Shown: positions 17,590-48,984 of the stretch, one piece after another | How positions within the stretch are numbered: position 1 is the stretch's first letter | Layout of the letters: each line of letters starts with the position of its first letter | Source of the DNA: Planctomycetota bacterium | Lineage (GTDB): Bacteria; Planctomycetota; GCA-002687715; CAIWVZ01 | Length of the DNA: 64,000 nucleotides | Direction of reading: 5' to 3' | Assembly: GCA_044222185.1 (NCBI GenBank) | Contig: JBGANV010000014.1 | Location: 9,361-73,360 of the forward strand | Notes under the pieces: model-generated | Told to the model about the DNA's origin: nothing | The model's database searches: none | Seen by the model: only the letters and a program-made list of their open reading frames with translations | Translations under genes and position numbers: made by a program

Positions 17590-17807
17590 ACGGAGAGCGG
17601 CGGCGCGGCCACGGCCACGAGGCGTGCGGATGCGCACGGTGCGCCGACCGGCCGGGCGCAGCGACGGCGCGCCACGACTTGTCCCTGGGGCTTCCGCAGA
17701 GGGAAATGCGCGCACCGGTCGCCTGACGGGCCAACCGGCATGTCGGTTGCATGAGTTCGATTGATGCGCCGCCTTTGGCTGCCTTCGGGAGACTGTGCTC
17801 ATGTTCC

Positions 17808-20399
17808 ATGACCAGGCCGTCGTTGGCGTCAGGATCCGCGGGTGCGCGATCCTGGTCGCTCTCTCACGCGTTCGGGGTCGCAGGCGTCGGCGGCGGTCTC
17901 CTGAGTTACGGCCTGTCGACTGCGACCGGAACCGTCTATTCGCAACTCACGTTCGACGACGGCACCGGCCCGGCGTTGTACGTTGCGGGCGATTTCACCG
18001 TGGCGGGTGACGTCGCCGCCAACGGCATCGCGTGCCGCAAGAGCGGGAAATGGCAAGCCCTCGGGGCGGGGCCCGGCGGGCGCGTTTATTGCATGCTCGG
18101 ATTCAACGACGGAACAGGGCCTGCGTTGTACGCCGGCGGTGAGTTCGGCGTTGCGCGGTGGAACGGTTCAAGTTGGGCGACGCTCGTCGGACTGCCGGCC
18201 ACCGTCACGTGTCTGGCCGCCTTCGACGACGGCACGGGTAACGCGCTCTACGCGGCCCGGATGGACCCATGCTGCATCGGCATCGTCGCGCGCTACCAGG
18301 GTGGCGCCTGGACGATCGTCGGCAGTCTTTCGCTGCCCGGGTTCCAAGGTGGCTACGCGGCCACGATGGCTGGGTTCGACGATGGAAGCGGGCCCGCGCT
18401 CTACGTGGCTGGAGGCTTCTCGACCGTGTCGGGCGTGACCGCGCCGGGGATCGCACGGTGGAACGGTGCGACGTGGGCGCCAGTCGGTGCGCTGGTTCCT
18501 GGCGTGCTCCGCACGCTGGTCGTGTTCGACGACGGCACCGGCGCCGCGCTCTACCTCGGCTTGACCGGCGTCGGCGGTGCTCCAGGCCTGCGACGGTGGT
18601 CGCCGCCCACGTCAACCTGGGCCGCCCTACCCGCTGGGTTTCTGGGAGCGGTTGCGGGCCTGACGGTGTACCACGGACCTGCGTTCGCGCGCGGGCTGTA
18701 CGTCGCAGGGAACTTCGTCATCGGCGGGCCGGGCACGACGCCGGTGGCGAGGTGGAACGCGGGCACGGCGACGCCGCTGCCGATCACGACCGACGGCGCC
18801 GTCCGTTCGCTGGAGATCTTCGACGACGGGACGGGAACGTCGATGTTCGTGGGCGGGGCCTTCACGAAGGCGGGCGCGGTCGATGCCAGCAACCTCGCGC
18901 GCTGGAACGGCACGTCGGTGTTTCGTGTCGGTGCCGGTGTGAACGCACCTGCGACCGCGCTTCTCGTTCATGACGACGGCAGCGGCGCCGCGCTTTACGC
19001 GGGCGGCGAGTTCACGAGCATCACGTCCTCCTCCCAGGCCCACGTCGCGCGTTGGAATGGCAGCGCATGGGCGTCGCTCCAGTCCGGCGTGGACGGGCCC
19101 GTGCTCGCGCTCGCGGAGTTCAACGACGGTTCGGGTCTCGCCCTGTATGCGGGCGGACGTTTTGCGAACGCGGGCGGTGTCCCCGCGTCGAACGTCGCAC
19201 GCTGGAACGGCACGCAATGGTCCGCGCTCGGCAGTGGCGTCCAATTGCCCGGCAGCCCCGCGCTGGCCGAGGTGCGTGCGTTCTCCGTATTCAACGATGG
19301 CTCCGGCCCGGCGCTCTACGCGGCCGGCGACTTCACGATCGCGGGTGGGGTCACGGCGACGGGAATCGCCCGATGGAATGGCGGCGCGTGGAGCGCGGTG
19401 GGATCCGCGTCGACCGGGCCCGTATCCGCACTCGGTCAATTCGATGACGGGTCGGGGCTCGCGCTCTACGCCGGCGGGACCTTCACAACGTCAGGGGCAG
19501 GGGGAATCGCGTCCGTTGCCAGGTGGAACGGCTCACAGTGGTCGGCCGTGCCTGGCAACCCCCTTGCAGCGGGGACATTCAGCGTGCCGGCCGTGCGCGC
19601 GCTCACGACCTTCGACGACGGGACGGGTCCGGCCCTCTACGTCGGCGGTGAGTTCACGACGCCGCTCAACGGGGGAACCCAGAACGTGGCGCGCTGGAAT
19701 GGGGCACAGTGGCAAGGTCTGGGTGCCGGCCTGACGGGCGTCACCACGGCGACGGTGGCGCCGACGGTGGACGCGCTCGTGGTGCATGACGACGGCACGG
19801 GCCCGGCGCTCTACGCCGGTGGAAGGTTCAGTACGTCGGGCACTGCGACGACGTTCAACGACCTCGCGCGGTGGAGCGGTGCCGGTTGGCAACGCGTGCG
19901 CGGAGGCGTGCGCGGCACGAACGATCCGGTCGTTCACGCCCTGTGTTCGTTCAACGACGGTCCTGGCACGGCCCTCTTCGTCGGCGGCCGCTTCACCCTC
20001 GCCGACGGGATCGCGTCCGCCTACCTCGCGCGCTGGGCGTTGCCCCGCGCCGACCTGGCTTTCGTGCAGACCGGTGGTTCGGGGTCCCCGGTGATGGTGA
20101 ATCAACGGTTCCTCATCCCCGGTGCGGAGTACTACAACGTCTTCAGCTTCCAGCCGGCACCGCTCGGAGTCGGCACGGGACCGTTCGGCGGGCTGTATGC
20201 GAGCAATCCGGCGGCGTTGCTCGCCCAACTACAGATTCCGCTCGGCATCCTGCCGTTCCATTTCGTCGCGACGTCCACATCCGTGTCCATGGGTCCCTAT
20301 GCGCTGCCCGTCGGGACTCCGATCGAAGCGATCGACTTCCGCCTCGTCGGAGGTGCGCCCGGATGCCTGTCGCACGTCGTGGCGTATCTCGTGCAGTGA
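17808..20399 (+). CDS. Large beta-propeller-like repeat protein (FDDG.GPALY.GG.F...ARWNG..W repeats) with type II C-terminal domain
   Basis: More than 10 copies of a roughly 50-aa repeat. The last ~115 aa are homologous to the end of 25729-27102. The start is uncertain and no in-frame signal peptide is visible. Confidence 0.8.
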   Translation: MTRPSLASGSAGARSWSLSHAFGVAGVGGGLLSYGLSTATGTVYSQLTFDDGTGPALYVAGDFTVAGDVAANGIACRKSGKWQALGAGPGGRVYCMLGFNDGTGPALYAGGEFGVARWNGSSWATLVGLPATVTCLAAFDDGTGNALYAARMDPCCIGIVARYQGGAWTIVGSLSLPGFQGGYAATMAGFDDGSGPALYVAGGFSTVSGVTAPGIARWNGATWAPVGALVPGVLRTLVVFDDGTGAALYLGLTGVGGAPGLRRWSPPTSTWAALPAGFLGAVAGLTVYHGPAFARGLYVAGNFVIGGPGTTPVARWNAGTATPLPITTDGAVRSLEIFDDGTGTSMFVGGAFTKAGAVDASNLARWNGTSVFRVGAGVNAPATALLVHDDGSGAALYAGGEFTSITSSSQAHVARWNGSAWASLQSGVDGPVLALAEFNDGSGLALYAGGRFANAGGVPASNVARWNGTQWSALGSGVQLPGSPALAEVRAFSVFNDGSGPALYAAGDFTIAGGVTATGIARWNGGAWSAVGSASTGPVSALGQFDDGSGLALYAGGTFTTSGAGGIASVARWNGSQWSAVPGNPLAAGTFSVPAVRALTTFDDGTGPALYVGGEFTTPLNGGTQNVARWNGAQWQGLGAGLTGVTTATVAPTVDALVVHDDGTGPALYAGGRFSTSGTATTFNDLARWSGAGWQRVRGGVRGTNDPVVHALCSFNDGPGTALFVGGRFTLADGIASAYLARWALPRADLAFVQTGGSGSPVMVNQRFLIPGAEYYNVFSFQPAPLGVGTGPFGGLYASNPAALLAQLQIPLGILPFHFVATSTSVSMGPYALPVGTPIEAIDFRLVGGAPGCLSHVVAYLVQ

Positions 20400-25728: not shown

Positions 25729-27102
25729 TCATTGCACGGTGAATCGGATCGCCGGCGACACGCATCCCAGCCCGCCACCCGTCACGTCGAGGCAGATGCC
25801 GTCGAACGCGAGCCCGGGTGGAACAGCGAAGGGCCCCGCCGACGCCGATGTTCGTGCGGCGATGAAGTGGAATGGCTTCACGCCGACGGGCATCCCGATC
25901 TGCCAGAGGAGTTCGGTCAGATCGTTCGCGCACAGTCCAAGCAGCGGGCCGCTTCCCGGATCGCCTCCACAGAGCTGCGTGCTGTACAGGTTGAAGTACT
26001 CATGGCCCGGGACCATCTCGCAGTTCGTGATGAACATCGCGGTTCCCGGCCCACTGGCCTGCACGATCTCGAGGATGGGCCTCGGCGACGACCATCGCGT
26101 GAGGTAGCCAGCGGATATGCTGCTGCTGCACGCACACCCACCCACGACCAGGCCAGCACGAAAGAGCTGGAAGGTGGCGACGGGCGCGGTGAGACCCGAG
26201 TCGAGCGCGTGCCACGAGGTGCCGTTCCATCCCGCAACGCGGAGTGCTGGTACGCCACCTGCCGTCGTGAACGCTCCACCGGCGATCAGTTCGCCGTCGA
26301 ACGTCGTGATGGCGCGCACTCCGGAATCCAGACCGGCTCCGAGCGCATGCCAGTCGACTCCGTCCCACGCCGCGATCCGGTTCGCGGGAATGCCATTCGC
26401 CGCCGTGAAATACCCACCGGCGATCAGCTCACCGCCATGGGTCGCGAGCACTGCGACGTCTCCGTTGATCGATCCCAGCGAACCAGCCGCCGAGGCCATG
26501 AACCCGCGGCTGATCTGCGTTTGATGGTTCACGATGTCGAGTAGCGCCCAGGTCACGTCGTTGCCGTGGCTCGTCACCGCCGTGGGAACGACCATGGTCA
26601 TCGGCGCATCGACGCTCCACGACGTCCCATTCCAGCGTGCGCGGACGCCGATCGTGCCCTGATGACCCGGGTCGGAACTCGTCACCGATCCACCGGCGAA
26701 CAGCGCGCCGTCGTGAACCGTCATCGTTCCGATCGACATCCCGGCCGTCGGGAGCGGCAGCGGTTGCCATGTCGAACCGGTCCAGGCGGTGAGGCCGCCG
26801 CATTCGGCGATCAGAGTCCCGTTCAGCACGGCCAGTTCGCGAATCGGGTCGGCGACGCCGGCCCCGAGTGCGCTCCACTTGGATCCGTTGAACGCGGCGA
26901 CATGGCGTGCGGGGACGCCGTCGGCGCTGGTGAACCCACCGCCTGCGATCAGTCGACCGTCGTAGACCGCGAGCGCCGTCACGGCCCCATCGAACCCCGA
27001 ACCCACCGTCGACCAGGTCGGGGGAGGACATTGACCCGGAGTCGCGGGCGCCACGGCGACGAACACCACCAGCACCAACCAGGACGTTTGAAGCCTTGTC
27101 AT
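25729..27102 (-). CDS. Secreted beta-propeller-like repeat protein with type II C-terminal domain
   Basis: Signal peptide ending TPG-Q; repeats LIAGG.FT.A.G.PA..IA.W.G..W..LG.G; C-terminal domain homologous to 17808-20399. Confidence 0.82.
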   Translation of the reverse strand: MTRLQTSWLVLVVFVAVAPATPGQCPPPTWSTVGSGFDGAVTALAVYDGRLIAGGGFTSADGVPARHVAAFNGSKWSALGAGVADPIRELAVLNGTLIAECGGLTAWTGSTWQPLPLPTAGMSIGTMTVHDGALFAGGSVTSSDPGHQGTIGVRARWNGTSWSVDAPMTMVVPTAVTSHGNDVTWALLDIVNHQTQISRGFMASAAGSLGSINGDVAVLATHGGELIAGGYFTAANGIPANRIAAWDGVDWHALGAGLDSGVRAITTFDGELIAGGAFTTAGGVPALRVAGWNGTSWHALDSGLTAPVATFQLFRAGLVVGGCACSSSISAGYLTRWSSPRPILEIVQASGPGTAMFITNCEMVPGHEYFNLYSTQLCGGDPGSGPLLGLCANDLTELLWQIGMPVGVKPFHFIAARTSASAGPFAVPPGLAFDGICLDVTGGGLGCVSPAIRFTVQ

Positions 27103-27364: not shown

Positions 27365-30300
27365 ATGATCCCGCGCATCGCCGTGATCTGCCTCGTCGTG
27401 TCGGTTTTCGCCGGCGCGCAGATGGCCGACCTCTCACTCCACAACGTGCCGGTCGACCTCGCCTCGGGTCCGCGCACGAACCCCACATCGTTCCCGACGA
27501 TCGTCTGGACGGAGACGCTCGCGTTCCCGGGCACGACGTGCGTTCAGGTGCATCTCGCCGACCTCGCGCTCCAGGACGAGGACGACGCGCTCGTCGTCAC
27601 GTCGCTCGGTGACTCCGACCAGCAGGTGCTGCGACTCTCGAACGTGAAGTTCTGGGAGAACCACTCGGCCTGGTTCAACGGTCCGGGAGTGACGCTCGAA
27701 CTCCGACTCGCGCCGGGCTCGTCCGGGTCCGTGACCGTGGACTCGGCTTGGGTTTCGGCGCCGACGATCGCGCAACCCGACACGATCTGTCAGACGGACG
27801 ACCGCACCCCGTTTGGAAGCGGCGTGATTTGTCGCCTCGTGGCGTCGGCGGCACAGACCGGCGGCGGATGCACGGGGTTCCTGGTCACGAACACGTCCAT
27901 GATCCTCTCGGCCGGAAGTTGCGTGGGTACTCAATTCACCGTCGCCGAATTCAACTGTCCGTTCTCGACGACGGGCGGTCTGATCGTTCATCCCGCGGTG
28001 GCCGAGCAGTTCCCGGTGGACTCGTCGACGATCCTGTCCGCCAACGGTGCCGCCGGTGCCAACTGGGCCGTCGCGCGGCTCCATCCGAACAGCACGGGCG
28101 GGACGGCGGCTGGAGCCCACGGGTTCCTGACCGTCGCCACGAGCTACCCGACGCTCGCCAACGTCGCGTGCTCGGTCCGCGGGTATGGCGCCGATGCGTC
28201 ACCCGACCCCACACGCAACTTCGTATTGCAGAGTGACACGGCGACGCTCGCGTCCGTGTCCGGTCACGTGCTCCATCACACGTGCGACACGAACACTGGG
28301 AGCGAAGGTTCCCCGATCCTCGTCAACAACGAAGTCGTCGGGATCAACACGCACGGCGGATGCAACCCCACGCCGATCTCGCTCTCGAATGCGGGCACCG
28401 GTGTCCTCGAGTCCTCGCTCCAGGTGGCACGGACGGCGACCTCGGGTTGCGCCACGGTGACACCGCCGGATGGCAACCCCGTCAACGCGCCGTGCAGCAA
28501 CACGATCCTCACGATCGTTCCCGTCGCCAGCCAGTGGAACGTGGTGGGTGTGAACGGCCCAGGTGACTGGGACGTCGCGGTGAGCGGTGTCTCCTCCACA
28601 CGACCAGGCGGTTCCGCGGATTTCGTGTTCGCGGACGGACGCGCGGGGACGATCCCGCCCGCCAGCGGCAACGTCTTCAACTCCTTCAGCGGTTCGAACG
28701 CACCGGTCCAGTTCCGCAGCGAATCGAACATCATCAATGCGGGCGCTGCCGCCCAGTTCAACTGGAACGCGCTCGACGTCTTCCGCGCGTTCGCGATCAA
28801 CGTGACCAGCGCGGGCGGTCACGACGTCTTCATCCATGGCGACCCGCAGTTGACCTACTCGCTCTACACCGCTGCGGGTACGACGGCGTGGCGATCGCGG
28901 TCGGCTCTCACACCGACGGCCGCCGGTACGGCTGGCGATGGTGGGCAGGTCGGAGTGAATCTCCCCGTCGGCGTCCACCTGCTCGTGATCGCGCGGACCG
29001 GGGGCGTGGGCACCGTGCCCCAGACTCTCTACACGGTGAACGTCTGCCCGTCGGTCGCAGCCGTCACCGTGCCGGTGAACGGGGTCGCGTCATCGACGGC
29101 CGCGTGCAACCGGCTGGGCGTGACTCCGGTCTCCGTGCAGTGGAACGTCGTGATGCTGGGATCGTTGTCCGACTGGAACCTGGGTGTCGGCGCGGCGCAG
29201 TCGAATTCGCTCGCGGCGAGCACCGAGTGCGTGGTGGCAAACGGAACGCTCGGCGCCGTGACGCCGAACGTCGGATCGGCCTGGCGTGTCGGCGGCAGCC
29301 TCGGAGCGACGTTCGAACATCGCACGCCGGCAGCGATCGCGGTCGGATCGGTTGCGACGACGACGATCCCGGCTGGATCCATCGGGCGCGCATTCGCGTT
29401 CACGATCACGACGCCAGGACAGCACGGCATCATGTTCCCCGTGGCTCCGTCGAGTTTCGCCTGGCAACTCTTCGACGCCGGGACGTCGCCCGCGTGGCGT
29501 GCGAAGTCGGCGGCCGTGGCGTCGGGGACCGTATCGGCCACGCCGGCGACGGTCACCCTCACCGCGGGTCAGTATCTGCTCGTCGCCCACGCGGAGCCGG
29601 GCCCCGTGGCCGCGTCCACGCTCATGCGCGTCCTCGTGGCTCCGACCGTCGCGACGCTCACGCTCGTGCAGGGGACGACCAACAGCGCCAACGGCGCCGC
29701 CACGCCGTTCATCCACACGCCTCAGCCCAACGTCTGGAACGTCGTCGCAGCCACCTCCGACGCCACCACCGGCGACGACCTGACGATCGGTGCGGTCGAC
29801 TCGGCAGGGAGCGGCAACGGAGTCGCCGAGATGCTCGTCGCCGATGGGCACGCGGGCGTGATCGACGCGACGCCGGGCATCGTGACACGCACCACTGGTG
29901 CCGCCTCGATCTCCATCGAACACGCGGTGAGAACCCTCCTGCCGTTCAATTCCGTGCTCAACGACTCCATGGGAACGGCGGACGTCGTGCGGCTCTACGA
30001 GTTCAACGCACCGGTCGCGGCGTCCTACCAGATCGTCGTATCGGGCGCTCCGAGCCTGCGTTTCCGCCTCTACGCGCCGAGCGGTTCGTCAGCCTGGGTG
30101 CCGAAGCTCTCTTCCATCGCGAACGGACTCGCCAACGGCGGGACGACGCTCGTGTCGCTCGCGCCGGGAGCCCACGCGCTCGTCGTTCATCGCGACGGTG
30201 CGACGGGCACGGCCGCGTCCTACAGCCTCACGGTCACGCCGGCGCCCAGCGGCCAGCCGGCGATCACCGGACTCTCGCCCGCCACCGTGACTGCCGGTGC

Positions 30301-32296
30301 CGCCCAGTTCACGCTGACCGTCAACGGCACGGGAATCACGCCGTTCTCGTTCGCCAGGTTCGACGGCGTTTCGCTTCCGTCGTCGAGCCCCGCGGCGGGC
30401 ACGGTGGAGGCGATCGTGCCGGCCCAGCTCGTGACCACCGGCGGTGTTCACACGATCACGCTCGTGAACGGACCCCCCGGCGGCGGGACGTCGAGCGGCA
30501 TGACCTTCACGGTGAACAACCCCGCACCGACGCTGGCGTCGGTCGCCGCGGCAGTTCCGCTGGGCACCAGCGGCACGGTCACCGTCGACGGATCGGGTTT
30601 CGTGGCCGGCGGCTCCATCGTTCGCTGGGGTACGACCGACCTCGCGACGACGTTCGTTTCGTCGACGCAGCTCACGGCCGCGTTGCCGGCAGCGGTGAAC
30701 GTCGTCGTCGGCCCCGTCGCCGTGCGCGTCGTCAACGGCGCACCGGGGGGCGGGGCGTCTGGCGCGATCAACGTGCAGAGCCCGTTCCCCACGCCATCGC
30801 TGACGTCGCTGTCTCCGTCGACGCTTCTGGTCGGCTCGTCGAGCGCGACCATCACGGTCTTCGGCACCGGCTTCTTCGCCGGAGCGTCCACGGGCAATGT
30901 GAACGGACTGCCCGTCGCCACGACCGTCTCGAGCCAGACGGCGATGGACATCACCATTCCGGCGGCGTCGCTCACGACGCCCGGGTCCCGCTCGATCGTC
31001 GTCACGACGACGGGACCCGGCGGGGGAGCCTCGAACACGCTGCAGCTCCTCGTGAACTACCCGCTTCCGACCGTCACCGGAATCTCACCGAGCTCGGCGC
31101 TCGTCGGTTCGGGCCCGGCCGTCGTCACGGTCACGGGCACCGGCTTCGTCGCGAACCAGTCCCTCGTGACGGTGGATGGGACTCCCATCACGACGACCGT
31201 GCAGTCGGCGACGCAGGCGCAGGCCACGTTGAGCTCCGCCGTGCTGAACACGGCTCACTCCGTGCAGCTGCGGATGCAGAACCCGCCGCCGGGCGGTGGA
31301 GCCTCGAATGCGATGGCCTTCACGATCCAAAACCCGACGCCCGTGATCACGGGGTTGTCGCAGACGTCGTTCGCGTTCGGCGCGGCGTCCGCGCCCCTGG
31401 CCATCACCTGCACGGGCCTCGTGCCCGGTGCGACGGCCACGTGGAACAACACGCCGATCGGCGTGTTCGAATCTTCACCGGGTGTGCTCACGGGGACGGT
31501 GCCGACGACGCTCCTCGCGATCCCAGGTCCGGTCTCCATCGTCGTCCAGAATCCGGCGCCGAACACGGGGCCGTCGGCGCCCGTGGCTGCAAGCGTGGAC
31601 GGGCCACGGCTGACGGCCATCTCGCCGTCGGTGATGCCGATCCTCCTGCCGGGATCCCTGCCACAGGTCGTGACGCTGACGGGTTCGAACTTCGCACCGA
31701 CGTCGCAGGCCTGGGCCGATGGCATCGCGTTGCCTGGGGCATTCAACAGCTCCACGTCGATGACCGTCCTCATCGGGCCGTCGATCCAGGGCGCGCTTCG
31801 GCCCGGCGCGCTGGCGATCGTCGTCCAGACGACGATCGGTCCCGTCAGGCTCCAATCGAACGCACGGGCGCTCGTCATGGGATCCGGCAACAACCAGGGC
31901 ACGTTCCAATACGTTCCCGTGGACGCCGGTCCCGGGACGCCGGTCACGTTCCGCTTCGAAGGCATGTTGCCCGGCGCGCCGATCACCGTGATCGCGGACC
32001 TCACCGCGCCGCTGCCGCTCGCACCGTTCCCGGATGCCTCGACCAACATGGTCCTGTCCGTCTACGCATCCATGCTTCCCGTCGTCGACGGGTTGGGGCT
32101 GTTCGGACCTCCGGCGCCGGTCACGACGACCTTCGATCCCGCGGCTACGGCACCCGGCGGGGTTTTCGAGATCCCAGGGCTCGTGATCCCCAACCCACCG
32201 CTTGGCGTCGACGCGGCGCTCCAGGCCGTCGTCCTCGATCCATCGAGTCCGATCGGATTGAGGCTCACCTGGGCGCGTTTCCCGCTGTCTCTCTGA
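27365..32296 (+). CDS. Giant secreted protein: trypsin-like (S1) domain with substituted triad, 3 WNVV-type repeat modules, 6 IPT/TIG domains and type I C-terminal domain
   Basis: AGGAG RBS; signal peptide ending AGA-Q; CTGFL, SAGSC, NWAVARL, DT..GSEGSP and GINTHGGC; repeated P.IT.LSP...G.GF...PPGGG.S modules. Confidence 0.88.
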   Translation: MIPRIAVICLVVSVFAGAQMADLSLHNVPVDLASGPRTNPTSFPTIVWTETLAFPGTTCVQVHLADLALQDEDDALVVTSLGDSDQQVLRLSNVKFWENHSAWFNGPGVTLELRLAPGSSGSVTVDSAWVSAPTIAQPDTICQTDDRTPFGSGVICRLVASAAQTGGGCTGFLVTNTSMILSAGSCVGTQFTVAEFNCPFSTTGGLIVHPAVAEQFPVDSSTILSANGAAGANWAVARLHPNSTGGTAAGAHGFLTVATSYPTLANVACSVRGYGADASPDPTRNFVLQSDTATLASVSGHVLHHTCDTNTGSEGSPILVNNEVVGINTHGGCNPTPISLSNAGTGVLESSLQVARTATSGCATVTPPDGNPVNAPCSNTILTIVPVASQWNVVGVNGPGDWDVAVSGVSSTRPGGSADFVFADGRAGTIPPASGNVFNSFSGSNAPVQFRSESNIINAGAAAQFNWNALDVFRAFAINVTSAGGHDVFIHGDPQLTYSLYTAAGTTAWRSRSALTPTAAGTAGDGGQVGVNLPVGVHLLVIARTGGVGTVPQTLYTVNVCPSVAAVTVPVNGVASSTAACNRLGVTPVSVQWNVVMLGSLSDWNLGVGAAQSNSLAASTECVVANGTLGAVTPNVGSAWRVGGSLGATFEHRTPAAIAVGSVATTTIPAGSIGRAFAFTITTPGQHGIMFPVAPSSFAWQLFDAGTSPAWRAKSAAVASGTVSATPATVTLTAGQYLLVAHAEPGPVAASTLMRVLVAPTVATLTLVQGTTNSANGAATPFIHTPQPNVWNVVAATSDATTGDDLTIGAVDSAGSGNGVAEMLVADGHAGVIDATPGIVTRTTGAASISIEHAVRTLLPFNSVLNDSMGTADVVRLYEFNAPVAASYQIVVSGAPSLRFRLYAPSGSSAWVPKLSSIANGLANGGTTLVSLAPGAHALVVHRDGATGTAASYSLTVTPAPSGQPAITGLSPATVTAGAAQFTLTVNGTGITPFSFARFDGVSLPSSSPAAGTVEAIVPAQLVTTGGVHTITLVNGPPGGGTSSGMTFTVNNPAPTLASVAAAVPLGTSGTVTVDGSGFVAGGSIVRWGTTDLATTFVSSTQLTAALPAAVNVVVGPVAVRVVNGAPGGGASGAINVQSPFPTPSLTSLSPSTLLVGSSSATITVFGTGFFAGASTGNVNGLPVATTVSSQTAMDITIPAASLTTPGSRSIVVTTTGPGGGASNTLQLLVNYPLPTVTGISPSSALVGSGPAVVTVTGTGFVANQSLVTVDGTPITTTVQSATQAQATLSSAVLNTAHSVQLRMQNPPPGGGASNAMAFTIQNPTPVITGLSQTSFAFGAASAPLAITCTGLVPGATATWNNTPIGVFESSPGVLTGTVPTTLLAIPGPVSIVVQNPAPNTGPSAPVAASVDGPRLTAISPSVMPILLPGSLPQVVTLTGSNFAPTSQAWADGIALPGAFNSSTSMTVLIGPSIQGALRPGALAIVVQTTIGPVRLQSNARALVMGSGNNQGTFQYVPVDAGPGTPVTFRFEGMLPGAPITVIADLTAPLPLAPFPDASTNMVLSVYASMLPVVDGLGLFGPPAPVTTTFDPAATAPGGVFEIPGLVIPNPPLGVDAALQAVVLDPSSPIGLRLTWARFPLSL

Positions 32297-32402
32297 TCGG
32301 CGCGCGCGTGGCTTGCCCGGGCTCTCCCGGGCGAGTCTGCGTTTTTCCCGTTAGGTCTCGGCGGGGCTCGCCTTCATAGGGGCTCCTCACCGGAGTTTCC
32401 TC

Positions 32403-35400
32403 ATGCGAGCCCGAACCGTCGCCCTCCTCCTGTCGTTCGTCGCTTCGTCCGTGGTCGGCCAGCAGGCGAGTCTGCCTCTTGCGAACCATCCCGTGCGCGC
32501 CAGTTCCGGTGTGCGACAGAACACGGGCAGCTCTGCCATCGAAACCGTGTGGACTGAGACCATCTCCGTCGCCTCGGCGACGTCCATCCAGCTTCAGTTT
32601 CAGGGCATCCAGCTCGGCGACGAGCGTGACGCGCTCGTCGTCACGAGTCGCTGGGACGGCCAGCAGCAGGCGCTGACGTCGAGCAACCTGAAGTTCTGGG
32701 CCAACCACTCGGCCTGGTTCAACGGCTCGGCCGTCACGGTCGAGTTGCGACTCGCGCCGGGATCGAGCGGGTACGCGCTCGTGGATTCGGCGTGGTTCAT
32801 GGGGTCGATCGCCATGGTCCCCGAATCGCTGTGCGCCGGTGACAATCGGGCGTTGTACACCGATGCGCGAATCTGCCGACTCATCGCGTCCGCCGGTCAG
32901 ACCGCCGGCGGTTGCACCGGGTTCCTCGGCGCTGCGTCGTCGACGATCTTCTCGGCGGGGAGCTGCGTCGGGTCACAGTTCACGATCGCCGAGTTCAGCT
33001 GCCCGGCGTCGACGGCGGGCGGTCTCATCGTTCATCCGCCCGTCTCCGAACAGTTCCCCGTCGACGCGTCGACGGTGCACTCGAACAACGGGGCCGCGGG
33101 AGCGAACTGGGCCGTGGCCCGGCTCCACCCGAACAGCACGGGACAGACGGCTGCCGGGCTTCATGGCGTCTTCACGTTGCTGCCGCTGGCGCAGCCCTAC
33201 CCGGCCAACGGAGCGGCGCTGACGGTCGCCGGCTTCGGGACGGATACGACGCCGGACGCCACGCGCAACTACGTCCTGCAGTCCGCCGCAGGGACCGTGC
33301 AGGCACCGATCACGTCGAACCTGATCACTCACGATGCGGACACGGCCACAGGAGGCGAGGGGTCGCCGATTCTCGTCGGCACGACGGTGGTCGGCGTGAA
33401 CACGCACGGCGGATGCACGGCGTTCCCAGGGCTCGGGAACAACGCGGGCACCGGCATCCAGGAGGGCGCGCTCCAGTCCGCGTTCAGCAGCATCAAGGGC
33501 TGCGCGACGACTTCGCTCGCAGCCAACACCCCGCAGGCGCTCACCTGTTCACCGACGGTGTTCTCGTTCGTCCCGAACGCATCGCAGTGGAACGTGGTCG
33601 GCGTCGGCGGCACGACGGACTGGGATGTCGAGATCGGAACCGCATCGTCGAGCCGCAACGGGACTCAGTCCGACTTCGTCTTCGTCGACGGCCGCGCTGG
33701 CGCGTTGGCGCCGATCTCGGGAGTCGCGACGGACATCGGCGCATTCGCGAACGGCACGATCCACTTCGCCAGCGAATCGGCGACCGTCGTCGACGACGCG
33801 CCAGCCAGCTTCACCTGGAGCTCGACTGCGGCGCTGCGCGTCTTCGCGGTGAACGTCACGAGTGCCGGCCTCCACGACGTCCTGGTCGCTGGCGACCCGA
33901 CGCTCCAGTATTCGCTCTACGCGCCCAACGGCACGACGGCTTGGCGTTCGCGCGGCACGGAGACGCCGCTCTCGGCGGGGAATCTGGGCGGCGCTCCGGT
34001 GGGCGTCACCATGGGGCTGGGCGTGCATCTGCTCGTCATCAGCCGCGCGGGCGGCCCTGGCACGCCATCGAACCCCACGTTCACGATCCATGTCTGCCAC
34101 CACGCGACGGTCTCGCCCGCCCTCAACGGAACGCCCGTGAACGTCAACGCCTGCGCCCAGGTCAGCCTGCCGTCGTCTGCGGGTTGGAACGTCGTGTCCG
34201 TGTCCACGCCTGCGACGGCAAACTGGAACGTCTGCTTCGACTCGGCGCAATCGCTTCGCACGGGGAGCGCGACGGACTTCGTCATCGCGCGGGGAGTGCC
34301 GTCTCTCGTGAGCGGCATGGTCTGGCGTCAATCCGGCTCGGCGTCGGGAGCGGTCGAGTATCAGAGCGACGTCGCGTTGACGCTCGGCGCACCGACGCCC
34401 GTGTCGTTTCCGGCTGGGAGTTCCGTCCGCGTCCTTTCGTTCCAGGCCGCGGTCGCCGGCAACTACGACATCTCGTTCCCCACGGGATCGGCGAGCCTGA
34501 AATGGAGGCTCTTCGATCACGGCACCATCGGTCAGTGGCGCTCCAGCGATGATGCAACGGCGAGCGGCACGCTGTCGGCGTTCCCGACGACGGTCTCTCT
34601 CGTGAGCGGCATCAACGCCCTCGTCATCTTCGGCGAGCCGGGACCGCTCGCGGTGGGAACGACGTGCACGGTTCGCGTTTGCGCGACGCCCGTGCCGGTG
34701 ACGCTCACGCAGGGTGTGGGAACTCCGCTCGCTCCCATCTGCGCCGACCTCACCCACACGCCCGAGGGCGGATTCTGGAACGCGATCGCCGTAGTCCCTG
34801 ACTCCGTGGGCGCCGCCGATCTCTACGTCGGCACCACGGCGGCGGTGCAGCCGGGCTTCGGGCAGTGCGAACTCGTGGTGGCGAACGGTCACGTCGGGAC
34901 GGTTCCCGCCGTGAACGCGCTGGCCGTCCGTACGTCCGTCCTGGGGACGATGGCGGCCGAACACGCCGCACGACTGACGCTCGCGTCGGCCACTCCGCTC
35001 GCCGACTCGTTCGCCGCGACGGATGTCGTCCGCATCTACGAGTTCCCGGTGACCGTGGCCGCGACCCACCAGATCACGGTGAGCGGCGCGCCGGCGCTGC
35101 GTTGGGCGGCCTTCGACTCCAACACGGGCGCCGGATGGGTGACGCGCGCGACGGCCGTCGCATCGGGGACTGGCGACGGCGTGTCGGTTGGCGCCACGTT
35201 CACGATCGGGACGGCGGCCATCGCCGTCTTCCGCGAGCCGAACGCCTCGACGCCCGTCACGTTCGCCGTCACCTGCGGTCCGCCCGCACAGCCCGCTCCA
35301 ACCGTCACGTCCATCTCGCCGACGTTGGTGCAGGTGGGCACGAACGGCATCACGGTGACCGCGAACGGATCGGGCATGACCCAGTTCAGCACGCTCTTCG

Positions 35401-37334
35401 TCGACGGGACGCCATTCCCGACGACGTTCATCTCCGCCGCGAGCGTTTCGGCGCCGTATGGTGCGGCGTTGCTGCAGGTCCCCGGGTTCCACACGGTGAC
35501 CGTCGTGAATCCGCCGCCGGGCGGCGGGACGTCGAGCCAACTGACGTTCGCCGTCAACGCGATCGCTCCGAGCCTCACTGCAGCCACGTGTGGGGCCGTG
35601 CTCGGAACCGCAGGCACGGTGACGGCGACGGGCGCGAACTTCGTTCCCGGGCTGACCATCCTTCGGTGGGCGGGAACGGACCTCGCGACGACGGTGATCT
35701 CACCGACGCAAATGACGGCCGTGCTTCCGGCCTCGGTGAACATCCTCGGCGGAACGGTGAGCGTGCGCGCGTTCACGCCTCCGCCCGGAGGCGGCCAGAG
35801 CGCGACGTTCCCCGTCCTCAACCCCGCGCCGGCACCGACGATCACCAGCGTGTCGCCCACGTCGCTCCTCGCAGGATCGCCGACCACGCAATTCACGATC
35901 ACGGGGACGGGGTTCTTCCAGGGCGCATCCGGACTGACCGTGACGGGAAGCGGACTGAGTCCCACGGTGGTGAACTCCACGCTCATCCAGGTGAACGTAC
36001 CGGCGAGCCTTCTCGCGCAGGCCGGCAACAAGACGGTGATCGTCACGAACGCGGCTCCTGGCGGCGGACAGTCGAACACGGTGGGGTTCACCGTGTTCAA
36101 CGCGCTGCCAACCATCGCGTCCGTGACGCCGAGTTCGGCCACGGTCGGAGACGCGCCGACGACGATCACCGTCGTGGGTACGGGGTTCGTCGCGCTGACG
36201 AGCCTGAAGATCGATGGCACGGGCATCAACCTCGGCGTCGTCTCGCCGACGCAGATGCACGGTCTGATTCCGGCGGGCTTCCTCGCCGCGCCGGGTGTGC
36301 ACTCGCTCACGGTGAACAATCCTCCTCCTGGCGGCGGGACGTCCGCGTCCGTTCCGTTCGTCGTGAATGCGCCCGCGCCCGCGATCACCTCCGCGACTCC
36401 CACGAGCTTCGCGTTCGGCGGCGCGCAGACGGCGATCACTCTCAACTGCACGAACCTGCTGGTCGGCGCCACCGCCACGTGGAATGGCACCCCGCTCTCG
36501 GGCTTCGTCACGAGCCCAGGCGTCTACACCGGCATCGTTCCGAGCACGCTGCTCGGTCAGCCTGGTCCGGCAACCGTCGTCATCGCGAACCCGGCGCCGG
36601 CGCTGGGTCCGTCGGCCCCCGTGACGGTCGTGGTGGAGAAGCCGCGGATCCAGTCGCTCTCCATTCCGGGAATCCCCATCCTCACGCCCGCGTCGCCACC
36701 GCAGGCCATCGGCATCACGGGCAGCTTCTTCGCGTCGACGACACGCGTCTTCGCCGACGGCACCCTGCTGCCGACCACTCCGATCTCGCCGACCCAGCTC
36801 ACGGCATCCGTTCCCGCGAGCGTCCTGGGAACGCAGCGTCCCGGTGCACTCGCGATCACCGTCCAGACGTTCGTCGGTGCCACGAAGGCTCAATCCAATT
36901 CCCACGCCCTGCTCGTTGGAGGCTTCAGCAATCAGGGGACGTTCCAACTCGTGCCGGTCGACGCCGGTCCGGGCGACTTCGCCACGTTCCGATTCGAAGG
37001 CACGGCGCCCGGCGTTCCGATCACCGTGCTCGCGGACCTCACGGGACCCGCGCCGCTGGCGCCGTTCCCCGACCCGGCGACGAACCAGGTGCTCGGGGTC
37101 TGGCAGTCGATCCTCCCGGTGATCGACGGCATCGGTCTCCTCGGTCCGCCACTCCCGGTCACCACGGTCTTCGATCCGGACGCGACGGCGCCGGGCGGTG
37201 TCTTCGAGATCCCGAACCTCCAGGTGCCGAACCCGCCACTCGGGATCAGTGCAGTGTTGCAGGCCGTCGTTCCCGATCCATCGACTCCCATCGGTCTGCG
37301 CCTCACGTGGGCGCGCTTTCCGCTCGCGCTTTGA
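32403..37334 (+). CDS. Tandem paralogue of 27365-32296 (trypsin-like domain, repeat modules, IPT/TIG domains, type I C-terminal domain)
   Basis: Collinear along its whole length (NHSAWFNG, SAGSC, NWAVARLHPN, GGEGSP, final LRLTWARFPL.L). Confidence 0.88.
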   Translation: MRARTVALLLSFVASSVVGQQASLPLANHPVRASSGVRQNTGSSAIETVWTETISVASATSIQLQFQGIQLGDERDALVVTSRWDGQQQALTSSNLKFWANHSAWFNGSAVTVELRLAPGSSGYALVDSAWFMGSIAMVPESLCAGDNRALYTDARICRLIASAGQTAGGCTGFLGAASSTIFSAGSCVGSQFTIAEFSCPASTAGGLIVHPPVSEQFPVDASTVHSNNGAAGANWAVARLHPNSTGQTAAGLHGVFTLLPLAQPYPANGAALTVAGFGTDTTPDATRNYVLQSAAGTVQAPITSNLITHDADTATGGEGSPILVGTTVVGVNTHGGCTAFPGLGNNAGTGIQEGALQSAFSSIKGCATTSLAANTPQALTCSPTVFSFVPNASQWNVVGVGGTTDWDVEIGTASSSRNGTQSDFVFVDGRAGALAPISGVATDIGAFANGTIHFASESATVVDDAPASFTWSSTAALRVFAVNVTSAGLHDVLVAGDPTLQYSLYAPNGTTAWRSRGTETPLSAGNLGGAPVGVTMGLGVHLLVISRAGGPGTPSNPTFTIHVCHHATVSPALNGTPVNVNACAQVSLPSSAGWNVVSVSTPATANWNVCFDSAQSLRTGSATDFVIARGVPSLVSGMVWRQSGSASGAVEYQSDVALTLGAPTPVSFPAGSSVRVLSFQAAVAGNYDISFPTGSASLKWRLFDHGTIGQWRSSDDATASGTLSAFPTTVSLVSGINALVIFGEPGPLAVGTTCTVRVCATPVPVTLTQGVGTPLAPICADLTHTPEGGFWNAIAVVPDSVGAADLYVGTTAAVQPGFGQCELVVANGHVGTVPAVNALAVRTSVLGTMAAEHAARLTLASATPLADSFAATDVVRIYEFPVTVAATHQITVSGAPALRWAAFDSNTGAGWVTRATAVASGTGDGVSVGATFTIGTAAIAVFREPNASTPVTFAVTCGPPAQPAPTVTSISPTLVQVGTNGITVTANGSGMTQFSTLFVDGTPFPTTFISAASVSAPYGAALLQVPGFHTVTVVNPPPGGGTSSQLTFAVNAIAPSLTAATCGAVLGTAGTVTATGANFVPGLTILRWAGTDLATTVISPTQMTAVLPASVNILGGTVSVRAFTPPPGGGQSATFPVLNPAPAPTITSVSPTSLLAGSPTTQFTITGTGFFQGASGLTVTGSGLSPTVVNSTLIQVNVPASLLAQAGNKTVIVTNAAPGGGQSNTVGFTVFNALPTIASVTPSSATVGDAPTTITVVGTGFVALTSLKIDGTGINLGVVSPTQMHGLIPAGFLAAPGVHSLTVNNPPPGGGTSASVPFVVNAPAPAITSATPTSFAFGGAQTAITLNCTNLLVGATATWNGTPLSGFVTSPGVYTGIVPSTLLGQPGPATVVIANPAPALGPSAPVTVVVEKPRIQSLSIPGIPILTPASPPQAIGITGSFFASTTRVFADGTLLPTTPISPTQLTASVPASVLGTQRPGALAITVQTFVGATKAQSNSHALLVGGFSNQGTFQLVPVDAGPGDFATFRFEGTAPGVPITVLADLTGPAPLAPFPDPATNQVLGVWQSILPVIDGIGLLGPPLPVTTVFDPDATAPGGVFEIPNLQVPNPPLGISAVLQAVVPDPSTPIGLRLTWARFPLAL

Positions 37335-37355: not shown

Positions 37356-40300
37356 TCACCGCCGCGAATCGGGCGCAGCGTCGGTTCGCTCGGCGACGAG
37401 GCGGCCGCCGAACCGCCACATCGCGGACCTCGGCGACATGCGAAGCCGCGTCACGGTGTAGAAGTTCTCCGGGTTGTTGTTCACCGCTGCGCCGCCCTTC
37501 AGCGCTGCGGTGCCCAGGTCGTGGTTGACCACGTCGGGGATCACCCATTCGCTCAGCGATCCGGCCATGTCGAACGCACCGAACGGCGATTCGTCCACGG
37601 GGAAGCTCATGGAGCGTGAGTAGGTCGATCTCGCGAGCGCGTACCGCGAGCTCACCCACGACTGCGAGAGGAAGGACCCGAACGGGTAGAGCCGTCCGTC
37701 GGCACCGCGGGCAGCCTTCTCCCACTCGATCTCGCGCGGGATCCGGTAGCGCCACGGTCGGCCCGCCTTCGAGTCGACGTCCGTTCGCCACGCCGCGTAG
37801 GCCTCCAACGCCGCGAAGGTGAGGCCGCGCGCGGGAAGGACTGCCTCCGTGTCGGCGACCTGCCAGGGTTTCCCGGGGCCGGGGGGAGTGAGCTCCGCAT
37901 CGGGGGCATCGCCCGGCAGCGCGCTTCGCGGTGCGAAGGCACGCGCCGACTGAGGCCCGATCGCGTTGAGGAACTCCGCGTATTCAGCCCAGTTGATTTC
38001 GTGATCCTGGATCCAGAACTCCGGAAGCGTCGCGACGCGCGACTCGCAGGCGTCGAAGAACCGGACCTCCGTGGGAGTCCCGCCCACTCGGGCAGGCCCG
38101 GCCGGAACGTGGACGAACCCCTTGGGGCTGAAACCCGGGGGACGCAGCGTCACGTCGAGCTTGACCGTCGAGCCGCGTTCGACGCGAACGGGCAGGCGTT
38201 GCAGTTCGAACCCGTCGTGGCGGACGACGGCGAGGTACGAGCCCACTTCGAGCTCGCGGTGGAACCCTGAGCCCGAGCCGACACGTGTCTGCGGCGACGT
38301 GAGGACGGGTGCGACGGTCACGCGGAGTTCGCTCTCGCCGTCGAGTACGCGGTCGACGAGGATTCCGTCGCGAAGCAGGCGCGCCCGCTTGCCTGCGAGC
38401 GCCGGGAGCTCGGCCGTCGACGTGAGCGTCACGCCTTCGACCGCGACGAGCACGTCGCCGGGGAGAAGGTCCGCGGACGTCGTTCGGATGACCTGCAGGC
38501 ACGGCGCCCCGGGCTCCAGGTCGGACCAGCGGCCTTCCAACGGGACGGGAACGAGACGACGCGGCGCATCGGCGCTGACCGACGAAGCCTCGCGGTAACG
38601 CAAGAGGTGGATCTCCGCGTCGCTCGGCTGTGCGCGGATTTCGAGCACGCCACCGAGAAGCTCCGCCGTGAACCTCCCATCGCGGTCGGCGCGACGGAGC
38701 GCCTCGCGGATCGCATCGGCCGCGCGCGTGTCGCCGAGGCGTTCCGCCTCATGCAGCCGTTCGGCGTGCAGCCCGCACACGACGTCCGCGGCGCCCGGTA
38801 CGTCGGGCGCGCGCTTCAACGCTTCCGTGATCGTCTCCGGAATGCCGAACGTGAGCTCGTCGATCTCCTGGATCAGCCGCGGGATCTCGGCGTCGAGTCG
38901 CTGGAGGCGCTGCTCTTCTTTCGGGTCCAGATGGGAGAGCGTGGCGATCGTCTTCAACTTCGACAGCTCGGCCTCGACCTCGATGGTGTGACGTTGCAGC
39001 TTGCGGAAGCGGTCGAGTCGGGAAAGGGCGTCGGCGACCAACTCCGCGGCATCGCGCAGGGCGAGCGCACGCGTGGTCCGTTCGCGGAGGGCGAGAACTC
39101 GCGGGTCCGTACCGCGCAGTGCGAGCGCGCGACCGGCGCATGCCGCAGCCGTCTCCGGGTCCTCGCGGTCGAGCGCGGCGACGGCGCTCGCGATCTCGGC
39201 CTCGAATCGCCGCCCATCGGCGATCACCCGCCAGGCCTCGACGACCAGGTACGTCGCGAGCGTGAGGGAGAGAGCCGCTGCGACGGCCGCGGTGCGGGGA
39301 CGTCGGCGAATCGCCCGCGTCATGCGGACGCGGAGCGCGGGCGGCCGCGCCCGGATCGGGCGGAGGTCGATCAGCGCTTCGAGGTCGGCGACGAGTTCGG
39401 CGGCGCTCGCAAACCGCGCCTCGGGATCGCGCTCGAGGGACTTCGCCACGACGACCTCCACGTCGCGGGGGAGACTCGGAACGAGCTGGCGAAGGGGGAC
39501 CGGATCGGTGGTGAGGATCGCGTTCAGCACCTGCTCGGACGTTCCGCCGGGGAACGGCGGCCTGCCCGCGAGCATCTCGTAGAGCGTTGCGCCCAAGGAC
39601 CAGATGTCCGTGCGAGCGTCGAGCGCGCCCCGGGCTTCCACCTGTTCGGGGGACGCGTAGTGAGGAGTGCCGCGGAACACGCCCGTGAGGGTGAGCGTTT
39701 CTCCCAGGTCGCCGCGGGCGAGGCCGAAGTCGGTGAGTACCGCCCTGCCTTGCGGAGTGATGCGGATGTTCGACGGTTTGATGTCCCGGTGGATCACGCC
39801 CGCCGCGTGCGCGGCTGCGAGCCCGCGGGCGATGTCGAGCGCGATGCGAACGGCGTCCATGGGATTGGGACGCGATCCGATACCGTCGCGCAGCAACTCG
39901 TCGAGACCGCGGCCTGGAACGTACTCCATGGCGACGAAGACCGTGCCGTTCGCCTCGCCAGCCGAGATGGCCGTGACGACGTTGGGATGCTGTACGCGTC
40001 CGAGCGCCTCGGCTTCACGAAGGAGACGTTCGCGCGCTTCGCGTGTCGTCGCGAGCGTCGCGTGGAGGACCTTCACGGCGACACGACGCTTGAGCGACGG
40101 CTGCGCGGCGAGCCAGACCACACCCATGCCGCCCTCGCCCAGCGGCTCGATGAGGTGGAACTCTCCGAGACGGTCACCGCCATTGACCTGTGACGTGGCC
40201 GAAGCAACTCGCGGAGCCTCGTCCGGAGAGCCGGCGAGCACGCGCAGCTGGTGACGCTCCTCCTCCGTCAACTCCGGGTGGGCGGCGAGAAAGCCCTCGA

Positions 40301-40376
40301 GGTCCAATGGCTCGCCCGAGAACAGCTTTTCGAGTGCGGCGTCGAACGCCGCGGATGCGGATGGATCCGAGGACAC
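37356..40376 (-). CDS. Ser/Thr protein kinase with TM helix, helical region, PEGA-like segment and C-terminal FGE-sulfatase (SUMF1) domain
   Basis: GEGGMGVV, VAVK, HRDIKPSN, DFGLAR and GTPHYASPEQ; WEKAARG.DGRLYPFG and SPFGAFDMAGSLSEW. Confidence 0.92.
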   Translation of the reverse strand: MSSDPSASAAFDAALEKLFSGEPLDLEGFLAAHPELTEEERHQLRVLAGSPDEAPRVASATSQVNGGDRLGEFHLIEPLGEGGMGVVWLAAQPSLKRRVAVKVLHATLATTREARERLLREAEALGRVQHPNVVTAISAGEANGTVFVAMEYVPGRGLDELLRDGIGSRPNPMDAVRIALDIARGLAAAHAAGVIHRDIKPSNIRITPQGRAVLTDFGLARGDLGETLTLTGVFRGTPHYASPEQVEARGALDARTDIWSLGATLYEMLAGRPPFPGGTSEQVLNAILTTDPVPLRQLVPSLPRDVEVVVAKSLERDPEARFASAAELVADLEALIDLRPIRARPPALRVRMTRAIRRRPRTAAVAAALSLTLATYLVVEAWRVIADGRRFEAEIASAVAALDREDPETAAACAGRALALRGTDPRVLALRERTTRALALRDAAELVADALSRLDRFRKLQRHTIEVEAELSKLKTIATLSHLDPKEEQRLQRLDAEIPRLIQEIDELTFGIPETITEALKRAPDVPGAADVVCGLHAERLHEAERLGDTRAADAIREALRRADRDGRFTAELLGGVLEIRAQPSDAEIHLLRYREASSVSADAPRRLVPVPLEGRWSDLEPGAPCLQVIRTTSADLLPGDVLVAVEGVTLTSTAELPALAGKRARLLRDGILVDRVLDGESELRVTVAPVLTSPQTRVGSGSGFHRELEVGSYLAVVRHDGFELQRLPVRVERGSTVKLDVTLRPPGFSPKGFVHVPAGPARVGGTPTEVRFFDACESRVATLPEFWIQDHEINWAEYAEFLNAIGPQSARAFAPRSALPGDAPDAELTPPGPGKPWQVADTEAVLPARGLTFAALEAYAAWRTDVDSKAGRPWRYRIPREIEWEKAARGADGRLYPFGSFLSQSWVSSRYALARSTYSRSMSFPVDESPFGAFDMAGSLSEWVIPDVVNHDLGTAALKGGAAVNNNPENFYTVTRLRMSPRSAMWRFGGRLVAERTDAAPDSRR

Positions 40377-45279: not shown

Positions 45280-45780
45280 ATGAGCGACCACTCCAATCGA
45301 CTGTTGTTTCCCTACCGTCCCAGATCCCGGGAGATGTGGATCTATGCCGGGTTGAGTGCGGCCATGAGCGCATCGGCCTGGACCGTGGGCGGTCTGCATC
45401 CCAGCGGTGCATTCGCAGGACTTTTCGGTGGCGATCGGGACGCCGTATCCGTGATCGCGGCGATCCTCCTGGCCGGGATCGCGCTCCTGTTCGTCGCGCT
45501 CGGACTCGGCCGCTTCTGGATCCGCGCCGTGCTGGCCGTGACTGCCGACACGTTGTTCGTTCCCGCCGGCTTTGCATGGCGCGATCACACAGCGCTTCGC
45601 CTCAACGCCATCGACACCGTCAAGGTCGTTCACTTCCTCGGAACCAGGCACGCCTACATCGGCTCGGGTTGCGTGAAGGCTCGCTTCGACGGCGACTGCC
45701 TGCCCGACAACGCAAGCTTCGATCGCGTGGTCGACCTCATTCTCGCTCGCGCCCCGCAGGCCGTGTCGACGTTTCCGTGA
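45280..45780 (+). CDS. Hypothetical membrane protein (2 TM plus PH-like domain)
   Basis: Two hydrophobic helices then a small beta-rich domain; the 3' end overlaps the convergent ECF gene. Confidence 0.55.
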   Translation: MSDHSNRLLFPYRPRSREMWIYAGLSAAMSASAWTVGGLHPSGAFAGLFGGDRDAVSVIAAILLAGIALLFVALGLGRFWIRAVLAVTADTLFVPAGFAWRDHTALRLNAIDTVKVVHFLGTRHAYIGSGCVKARFDGDCLPDNASFDRVVDLILARAPQAVSTFP

Positions 45781-48778: not shown

Positions 48779-48796
48779 TGGTTTGCTCCGCCCATG

Positions 48797-48824
48797 AGAC
48801 ATCGCTCCGAGCGGAATCGGTTCC
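48797..48824 (-). promoter_or_regulatory. Candidate ECF-type (autoregulatory) promoter GGAACC-N18-GTCT
   Basis: Minus strand reads GGAACC gattccgctcggagcgat GTCT just upstream of the ECF start; the spacer is slightly long. Confidence 0.3.
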
Positions 48825-48984
48825 CATCTTCGCCGAACCGGGACGAACCGAGCGAAAGTTGTCCAAGTTCCGGGCCGGACGGTCATCAGTCATCGGCGAC
48901 GTGCGCGTCGAGTCCCCCGTGCAGTCTGCGATGCGCGCCAGTCCGAGTCCGCCGAATTGTCGGCTGGCTCGCCGAGGTCCGATC

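Follow-up and report, generated by a model that had tools for sequence, protein, structure and literature searches.

Can a protease fold be kept, and copied, after its whole catalytic triad has gone? This question is raised by a 64,000-nucleotide stretch from a Planctomycetota bacterium (GenBank assembly GCA_044222185.1, contig JBGANV010000014.1, positions 9,361 to 73,360 of the forward strand), referred to here as the window; positions below are those of the window. Two tandem genes, A (P0003) and B (P0004), each encode a chymotrypsin-fold domain in which His57, Asp102 and Ser195 are replaced by Ser, Asn and Glu in both proteins alike (S/N/E; triads are written in this order, an intact one being H/D/S). 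An earlier note, made from the sequence alone, had drawn attention to these replacements. We conclude that A and B are a real, selected pair of pseudoproteases in a family where the triad has been lost recurrently.

The emptied catalytic site

The features on which the argument turns are the following.

27365..32296, +, gene A, open reading frame (ORF) with ATG at 27365, encoding a multidomain pseudoprotease of 1643 amino acids (aa), predicted to be secreted
27782..28450, +, chymotrypsin-fold S1B-like domain of A, aa 140-362 (model, fold search, sub-cut-off Pfam match)
27917..27919, +, Ser185 of A (AGT), His57 position (codon, alignment)
28061..28063, +, Asn233 of A (AAC), Asp102 position (codon, alignment)
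28304..28306, +, Glu314 of A (GAA), Ser195 position (codon, alignment including SplB GNSGSP)
28346..28348, +, Asn328 of A, S1-pocket His213 position (alignment)
32403..37334, +, gene B, ORF for a 1643-aa paralogue with the same architecture as A
32826..33503, +, chymotrypsin-fold S1B-like domain of B, aa 142-367 (alignment to A)
32961..32963, +, Ser187 of B (AGC), His57 position (codon)
33105..33107, +, Asn235 of B (AAC), Asp102 position (codon)
33357..33359, +, Glu319 of B (GAG), Ser195 position (codon)
33399..33401, +, Asn333 of B, S1-pocket His213 position (alignment)

Gene B starts 106 bp downstream of A; both ORFs are intact, and their products are 48% identical across the full 1643-aa length (GC content at third codon positions, 0.86). 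The six codons that the earlier note had placed at 27917, 28061, 28304, 32961, 33105 and 33357 are exact, and the CTGFL, DT..G and NTHGGC motifs it listed are present in both proteins. The codons of A and B differ synonymously at two of the three positions (AGT/AGC, AAC/AAC, GAA/GAG). The three columns align without gaps to the His, Asp and Ser of 11 relatives of the same architecture (32-44% identity), 10 of which are H/D/S and one of which, P0014, is H/D/D. The S1-pocket His213, present in 250 of 265 intact family members, has likewise given way to Asn in A and in B (G-[IV]-N-T-H-G-G-C), while Thr190 is retained and the oxyanion-hole Gly193 is present by sequence. A study of glutamyl endopeptidases (PMC5508998) describes an S1 pocket with a conserved His213 together with Thr/Ser190; A and B have Thr190 only.

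An AlphaFold2 model of domain A, built on a 97-row alignment, had a predicted local distance difference test score (pLDDT) of 94 and best matched Esp, V8 and a Bacillus glutamyl endopeptidase (Z 23-24, root-mean-square deviation [rmsd] 2.4-2.7 A over about 197 residues); domain B was assigned to the fold through its 59% identity to A. Pfam Trypsin_2 matched domain A below its cut-off (E 5.6e-5). Each of A and B retains 30 of 33 other family-conserved residues. The pair thus has the fold of an active S1/S1B peptidase and not its triad. Because neither a His base nor Ser195 is present, it follows from established chemistry that domains of such sequence cannot run His-Asp-Ser catalysis, that is, classical serine proteolysis.

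Origin of the pair and selection on it

In a 39-row IQ-TREE phylogeny (LG+G4, triad masked), A and B were sister paralogues with support of 100/98, so the three substitutions arose once and not independently; the tree shows that the triad was lost once and that duplication came afterwards. A and B grouped with the H/D/D pair P0014/P0037 and the intact P0034 (98/97).

The earlier note had read identical substitutions in two copies as a sign of selection rather than decay. As an argument this is weak for sisters whose domains are 60% identical: at 35 columns where A departs from a family residue conserved in at least 70%, B has A's residue in 21, so that three triad matches have a chance of about 0.22. 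Its verdict against decay was nevertheless borne out, partly through a check it had itself proposed. Domain dN was 0.35 and dS at least 1.18, giving a dN/dS of at most 0.3, and four-fold sites approached saturation (of 450 sites, a fraction of 0.43 were identical, where full saturation would give 0.37). The 60% identity of the domains compares with 47-77% in seven intact paralogue pairs, and it exceeds that of the downstream modules (32-50%) and stalk (47%), a ranking found in most intact pairs. These data show that the protease-like domain is under purifying selection. With residues replaced, fold retained and selection maintained, A and B fit the definition of pseudoproteases.

A GTDB scan with A/B-specific patterns gave no match, and one with family patterns gave 10 loci, none of them S/N/E. 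Homologue searches and the GTDB scan together found no close relative with the A/B triad outside the pair's own contig.

Recurrent loss of the triad in the family

We aligned 290 domains, comprising the initial homologues, the best 150 of 1398 hits, the best 120 of 384, and 7 locus ORFs; the sample is skewed toward S/N/E-like matches because the query profiles contained those residues. P0168, which has no domain, was dropped. There were 265 H/D/S domains and 25 others, or 24 complete ones after P0062, whose sequence ends inside the domain, was left out of the dead counts. At position 57 P0030 has either Gln or Val, according to which alignment is used; L004 is almost identical to P0033. The related loci come from Planctomycetota, Isosphaeraceae, Phycisphaerales or uncultured bacteria.

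Triad loss is recurrent in this V8-like family: it required 10 changes on a FastTree phylogeny of 289 rows, at least 5 of them forced by well-supported branches. Loss was commoner in the clade sharing the A/B architecture, at 10 of 35 complete rows, than around P0045, a distant S/N/E protein described below, where it was seen in 0 of 111 neighbours outside its own clade. In one genome, RBC034, a dead paralogue, L004 (S/D/I), stands beside three that are intact (L001, L003, L008); it is 68% identical to L001, with codon changes CAC->AGC and TCC->ATC. P0014, P0037 and P0150, which represent two separate lineages, keep His57 and Asp102 and have Asp at 195 (G-S-D-G or G-N-D-G).

Position 102 was Asp in 15 and Asn in 9 of the 24 dead domains, and nothing else. 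As raw counts with kinship ignored, His213 was found in 250/265 intact vs 14/23 dead members, Thr214 in 252/265 vs 13/23, and Gly192 in 207/265 vs 1/23; pocket residues 192, 213 and 214 therefore appear to relax as well in dead members. Within dead lineages, 16 of 26 further triad positions had changed. This exceeded the 6.9 expected from the all-site single-lineage rate (p 0.0002); against variable-site rates the expectation was 12.0-17.8 (p 0.08 and 0.84). Positively selected, concerted loss of the triad is not claimed, the excess being non-significant against variable-site rates.

Independent return to Ser/Asn/Glu

P0045 and P0174, each of about 1220 aa, come from a distant clade of different architecture and are also S/N/E; P0045 has a GC-type dockerin. 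Monophyly of the four S/N/E proteins, a group defined by the very columns masked in the tree, was rejected (log-likelihood lower by 159; approximately unbiased test, p-AU 1.8e-11), and both trees required 3 changes in this state. S/N/E has at least two independent origins. Under a BLOSUM62-type replacement null with assumed background frequencies, S/N/E had a probability of 4e-4 per fully changed lineage, and of 0.006-0.06 for 13-140 lineages, where 70 and 140 are guessed numbers of dead lineages among the 1398. A probability this low for its repeated appearance suggests that the emptied site has residue preferences.

P0045 and P0174 belong to a clade of nine orthologues (P0045, P0044, P0171-P0176 and P0178; about 1215 aa, 50-70% identity), none of which has His57. 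Their triads are S/N/E in two, Q/D/A in three, and S/N/A, S/D/A, Q/D/N and Q/D/S in one each. The closest orthologues of P0045 are S/D/A (69%) and Q/D/A (66%), with Ala at 195. The triad columns underwent 3, 3 and 4 changes in this clade; the mean was 2.1, and other conserved columns had 0.48. The dead domain has been retained in these nine proteins and the triad letters have not; since Glu and Ala interchange, Glu195 is not essential in that clade. The earlier note had asked whether S/N/E is conserved among homologues or the positions vary at random. Variation is non-random: none of the 24 dead domains has anything but Asp or Asn at position 102, and S/N/E re-emerged in a distant clade. Conservation of S/N/E was not found, with six different triads among nine orthologues.

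The nine orthologues are repeat-rich proteins with a dockerin-like tail, and all have Asp in G-D-G-C, where intact members have Gly or Ala. P0045 is labelled 'V8-like Glu-specific endopeptidase' at its source despite having no triad; some intact relatives carry the same name from JGI.

Two candidate replacements for lost catalytic residues were considered and rejected. A nucleophile moved to Ser194 (G-S-E-G) would not hold across the group, this position being Gly in B, Asn in P0045 and Asp in P0174; His215 (NTHGGC) as a new base is Gly in both other S/N/E proteins. As far as sequence comparison can tell, no His is common to all four beyond those found family-wide. A derived Cys in the motif EFxCP is shared by A (residue 198; 27956-27958, + strand) and B (residue 200; 33000-33002, + strand) where 242 of 265 family members have Val; it has no obvious partner in B, and domain A has two more Cys (aa 269 and 307). 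A and B have five His in common. Of these, A His252 (in AHG) is derived; 194 of 265 family members have Gln there.

Architecture of the remainder of A and B

The other parts of the two proteins are as follows.

27437..27769, +, N-terminal pro-domain of A, about aa 25-135 (~110 aa; alignment, common to intact family members)
28451..30250, +, three all-beta modules of A, each of ~200 aa with a PPC/collagen-binding-domain-like sandwich (WNVV motifs, model)
30251..31879, +, six IPT/TIG-like (CoaZ PGGG) repeats of A (hidden Markov model matches)
31880..32296, +, C-terminal domain of A, ~138 aa (A/B comparison)
33504..35291, +, three all-beta PPC-like modules of B (A/B comparison, motifs)
35292..36917, +, six IPT/TIG-like (CoaZ PGGG) repeats of B (hidden Markov model matches)
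36918..37334, +, C-terminal domain of B (A/B comparison)

The N-terminus of A is hydrophobic, with no hydrophobic window further along the protein, and is a putative signal peptide. The following ~110 aa, which had no Pfam match, would act as a pro-domain by analogy with the S1B proteases (PMC5508998). This segment ends with an acidic residue and a junction (PD/TIC in A, PE/SLC in B) that is probably the maturation point of A; residue 7 of the domain A model aligns to chain residue 1, the mature start, of 1wcz, 1p3c and 1qy6. In glutamyl endopeptidases, removal of the pro-peptide frees an N-terminus that completes S1; A and B retain the junction motif at which such cleavage would occur.

A whole-protein Pfam scan of A returned no family, and domains were instead scanned singly. 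The modules of A contain three WNVV motifs. The model of modules 1 and 2 (pLDDT 93) best matched collagenase PPC/collagen-binding domains (5sv5 and 1nqd; Z 11, rmsd 2.1-2.2); the Pfam PPC match was weak (E 0.067), and Foldseek with the two-module model gave low-TM matches only. NCBIfam NF058597 (CoaZ_rpt_PGGG, cut-off score 30) matched six stretches in each protein (309 bits in A and 284 in B), and Pfam TIG was above its cut-off in 4 of 10 single repeats tested. The C-terminal domains of A and B are 75% identical; their Atlas neighbours fall in unnamed clusters in which Planctomycetota is the commonest phylum, and the domain probably serves sorting or anchoring. A and B are probably exported and surface-held.

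The same chassis appears to carry swapped heads. An astacin (M12A) with an intact HELMHALGYIH motif lies on an A/B-type chassis of module, IPT-like repeats and C-terminal domain in the window (57966-61604, - strand), and similar astacins occur in L001 (1-1310) and L002 (18975-22739). A 976-aa ORF of L001 (16699-19629, + strand) has modules, IPT-like repeats and C-terminal domain without a catalytic head.

Comparison with known systems

Azurocidin, haptoglobin and HGF use the chymotrypsin fold without catalysis, and azurocidin has Ser at the His57 position. We know of no animal serine protease homologue with the full Ser/Asn/Glu set. The closest enzymes are the S1B glutamyl endopeptidases (S. 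aureus V8, S. epidermidis Esp and the Bacillus intermedius enzyme; MEROPS S1B), which A and B resemble in fold, Thr190, and signal peptide with pro-domain; at 17-18% identity, A and B differ from them in lacking His57, Asp102, Ser195 and His213 and in adding a long C-terminal chassis. Likeness to NF058597 choice-of-anchor Z proteins and to collagenase PPC/collagen-binding domains is limited to that chassis, and fold alone does not imply collagen binding. The animal SMIPP-S (PMC6524800) likewise have a chymotrypsin fold without catalysis, but are eukaryotic S1A proteins; an SMIPP-S structure, 3h7t, was among the fold-search matches of domain A.

Among bacteria, the nearest parallels are MamO and the dead MamE of magnetotactic species, trypsin-fold pseudoproteases that, according to PMC4794232, arose repeatedly after duplication and were kept beside active copies. 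MamO as described there is HtrA-related, retains His and Asp, and has Thr195, a non-Gly residue at 193 and di-His metal binding, whereas A and B are V8-like, have all three triad residues replaced and retain Gly193; neither a TauE domain nor a mam gene was found among the window ORFs scanned. MamO His and Asp mutants had temperature-dependent defects although catalysis was dispensable (PMC4794232), which would fit a structural role for positions 57 and 102. Bacterial pseudo-orthocaspases, according to PMC6426788, also combine a characteristic catalytic replacement (HC to YS) with an unchanged predicted fold, but theirs is a caspase fold and they are cytoplasmic. A literature search, in which subscription journals were thinly covered, found no work on this family of planctomycete proteins, on dead members of it or on an S/N/E triad.

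What the domain may do

We propose, by analogy with these systems and with a probability of about 0.58, that the head of A and B binds a peptide or protein ligand without cutting it. On the tree, an ancestral V8-like (S1B) protease carried on PPC modules, an IPT stalk and a C-terminal anchor lost its triad and was then duplicated. The head could serve in substrate capture, in adhesion or as an inhibitor decoy, held off the cell by the stalk and perhaps aided by the PPC-like modules. Since the chassis also occurs with an intact astacin or headless, it does not need this protease activity. Ser/Asn/Glu would be one of few preferred ways of repacking the emptied site: going by trypsin geometry, Asn102 may neutralise a buried Asp deprived of its His partner, and the longer Glu195 may fill the imidazole space and hydrogen-bond Ser57 and Asn102. 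The earlier note's pseudoprotease on a six-IPT stalk therefore stands as the best reading, and the interchange of letters among orthologues counts against its alternative of a rewired Ser-Asn-Glu site.

Several observations weigh against a binding head and its repacked site. There is no intact S1B paralogue within the 64-kb window. No ligand or partner emerged from the window and related loci and, kinase genes apart, their gene neighbourhoods showed no conservation. With His213 and other pocket residues gone, a Glu-containing substrate is unlikely to be bound in the ancestral mode. Asn102 accompanies Ser57 in 6 of 8 cases, and all 7 cases of Gln57 have Asp102 (Fisher p 0.007, kinship ignored), but with kinship allowed for there were 4 independent pairs and the result was non-significant (sign test p 0.25-0.5); Glu195 had no supported pairing with position 57 or 102. 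In addition, all 24 dead domains retain Gly193 and Gly196, and 8 of the 24 have an acid at 195 (5 Glu, 3 Asp).

These last two features would suit a Glu-dependent hydrolase with an intact oxyanion hole, Glu195 serving as the general base, as the nucleophile or as the activator of Ser57; the retained Gly193 differs from MamO's non-Gly residue (PMC4794232). The repeated origin of S/N/E, improbable under the BLOSUM62-type null, and the grouping of A and B with the H/D/D proteins P0014 and P0037 are also in its favor. A Glu195 site held by Asn102 and Ser57, perhaps reached through His/Asp/Asp intermediates like those two, is nonetheless a very improbable arrangement, and we hold the rewired enzyme as a whole to be just as improbable. 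Six triads among nine orthologues count against it: Glu occurs in 2 of 9, and catalytic residues seldom swap in this way. Moreover, the search profile held S/N/E and favored such matches, Ala->Glu needs one base change, Gly193 may persist for backbone shape alone, and the PA-clan families in a table passage of PMC6524800 all use His with Ser or Cys. Slightly less improbable, but still doubtful, is a scaffold for a metal or small ligand, with the Ser/Asn/Glu cluster or a surface His binding a cation. MamO offers a precedent (PMC4794232), and A and B share five His (one derived) and the derived Cys. The other S/N/E proteins, however, lack the derived His and Cys, and the neighbouring genes give no hint of a role in metal handling. 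A cluster of two neutral groups and a single carboxylate is, besides, a poor metal site.

The domain could instead be a structural passenger, kept for folding as a spacer, a pro-domain folding unit or a packing partner of module 1, with the PPC-like modules doing the binding. We regard this as unlikely, though it is the rival we take most seriously. It is consistent with the headless chassis of L001, with the relaxed pocket residues of dead members, and with triad sites in dead lineages that change about as fast as variable sites (the 16 of 26 noted above). Against it, the A/B domain is better conserved than modules and stalk, as in most intact pairs, and the domain is deletable, as the headless form shows, yet the nine-member clade retains it. 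That A and B are simply becoming pseudogenes, with three changes common by descent only, is scarcely credible: the single origin of the changes and the lack of a close relative with this triad found outside the contig would fit, but both ORFs are whole, dN/dS is at most 0.3 and synonymous sites are near saturation.

Neighbouring genes

Ser/Thr kinase genes adjoin a chassis gene in the window (37356-40376, - strand) and in two loci (raw count; L002 14742-17300 and 9181-9792, L008 5768-9556), and kinases lie within 10 kb of a chassis gene in four more loci (raw count). An ORF resembling an extracytoplasmic function (ECF) sigma factor by eye is next to the kinase in L002 and L008. Within the window, ORFs at 17751-20399 (+) and 25729-27102 (-) encode secreted-looking repeat proteins with Rax2/DUF5122 beta-propeller matches and a short C-terminal domain; the latter is divergent from gene A, 262 bp apart. 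Other window ORFs include a vanadium haloperoxidase-like protein (4365-6140, +; PAP2 and VCPO domains), a 1050-aa ORF with ECF-type sigma factor domains fused to several carboxypeptidase-regulatory-like repeats (45737-48889, -), and a protein with TIR, an NB-ARC/NACHT-like ATPase and TPR (55465-57873, +), the layout of STAND-type signalling/defence proteins.

Significance

The surprise in this locus is not the likeness of two tandem copies; it is that the family has been disarmed recurrently and has reached S/N/E more than once independently. The literature on bacterial trypsin-fold pseudoproteases is sparse, MamO being the main worked case that we found, and the database label 'V8-like Glu-specific endopeptidase' misleads for triad-less proteins such as P0045. 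If the Glu site were catalytic, which the evidence makes unlikely, one of the most closely studied folds would show a new chemistry, that of a PA-clan enzyme without a His base or a Ser/Cys nucleophile at the usual positions, in secreted proteins of Planctomycetota. The family offers a natural series: one genome has both intact and dead paralogues, the triad was lost 5-10 separate times, and a few replacement triads recur (S/N/E, Q/D/A, H/D/D). It is for that reason well suited to the question of what selection still maintains in a catalytic site once emptied.

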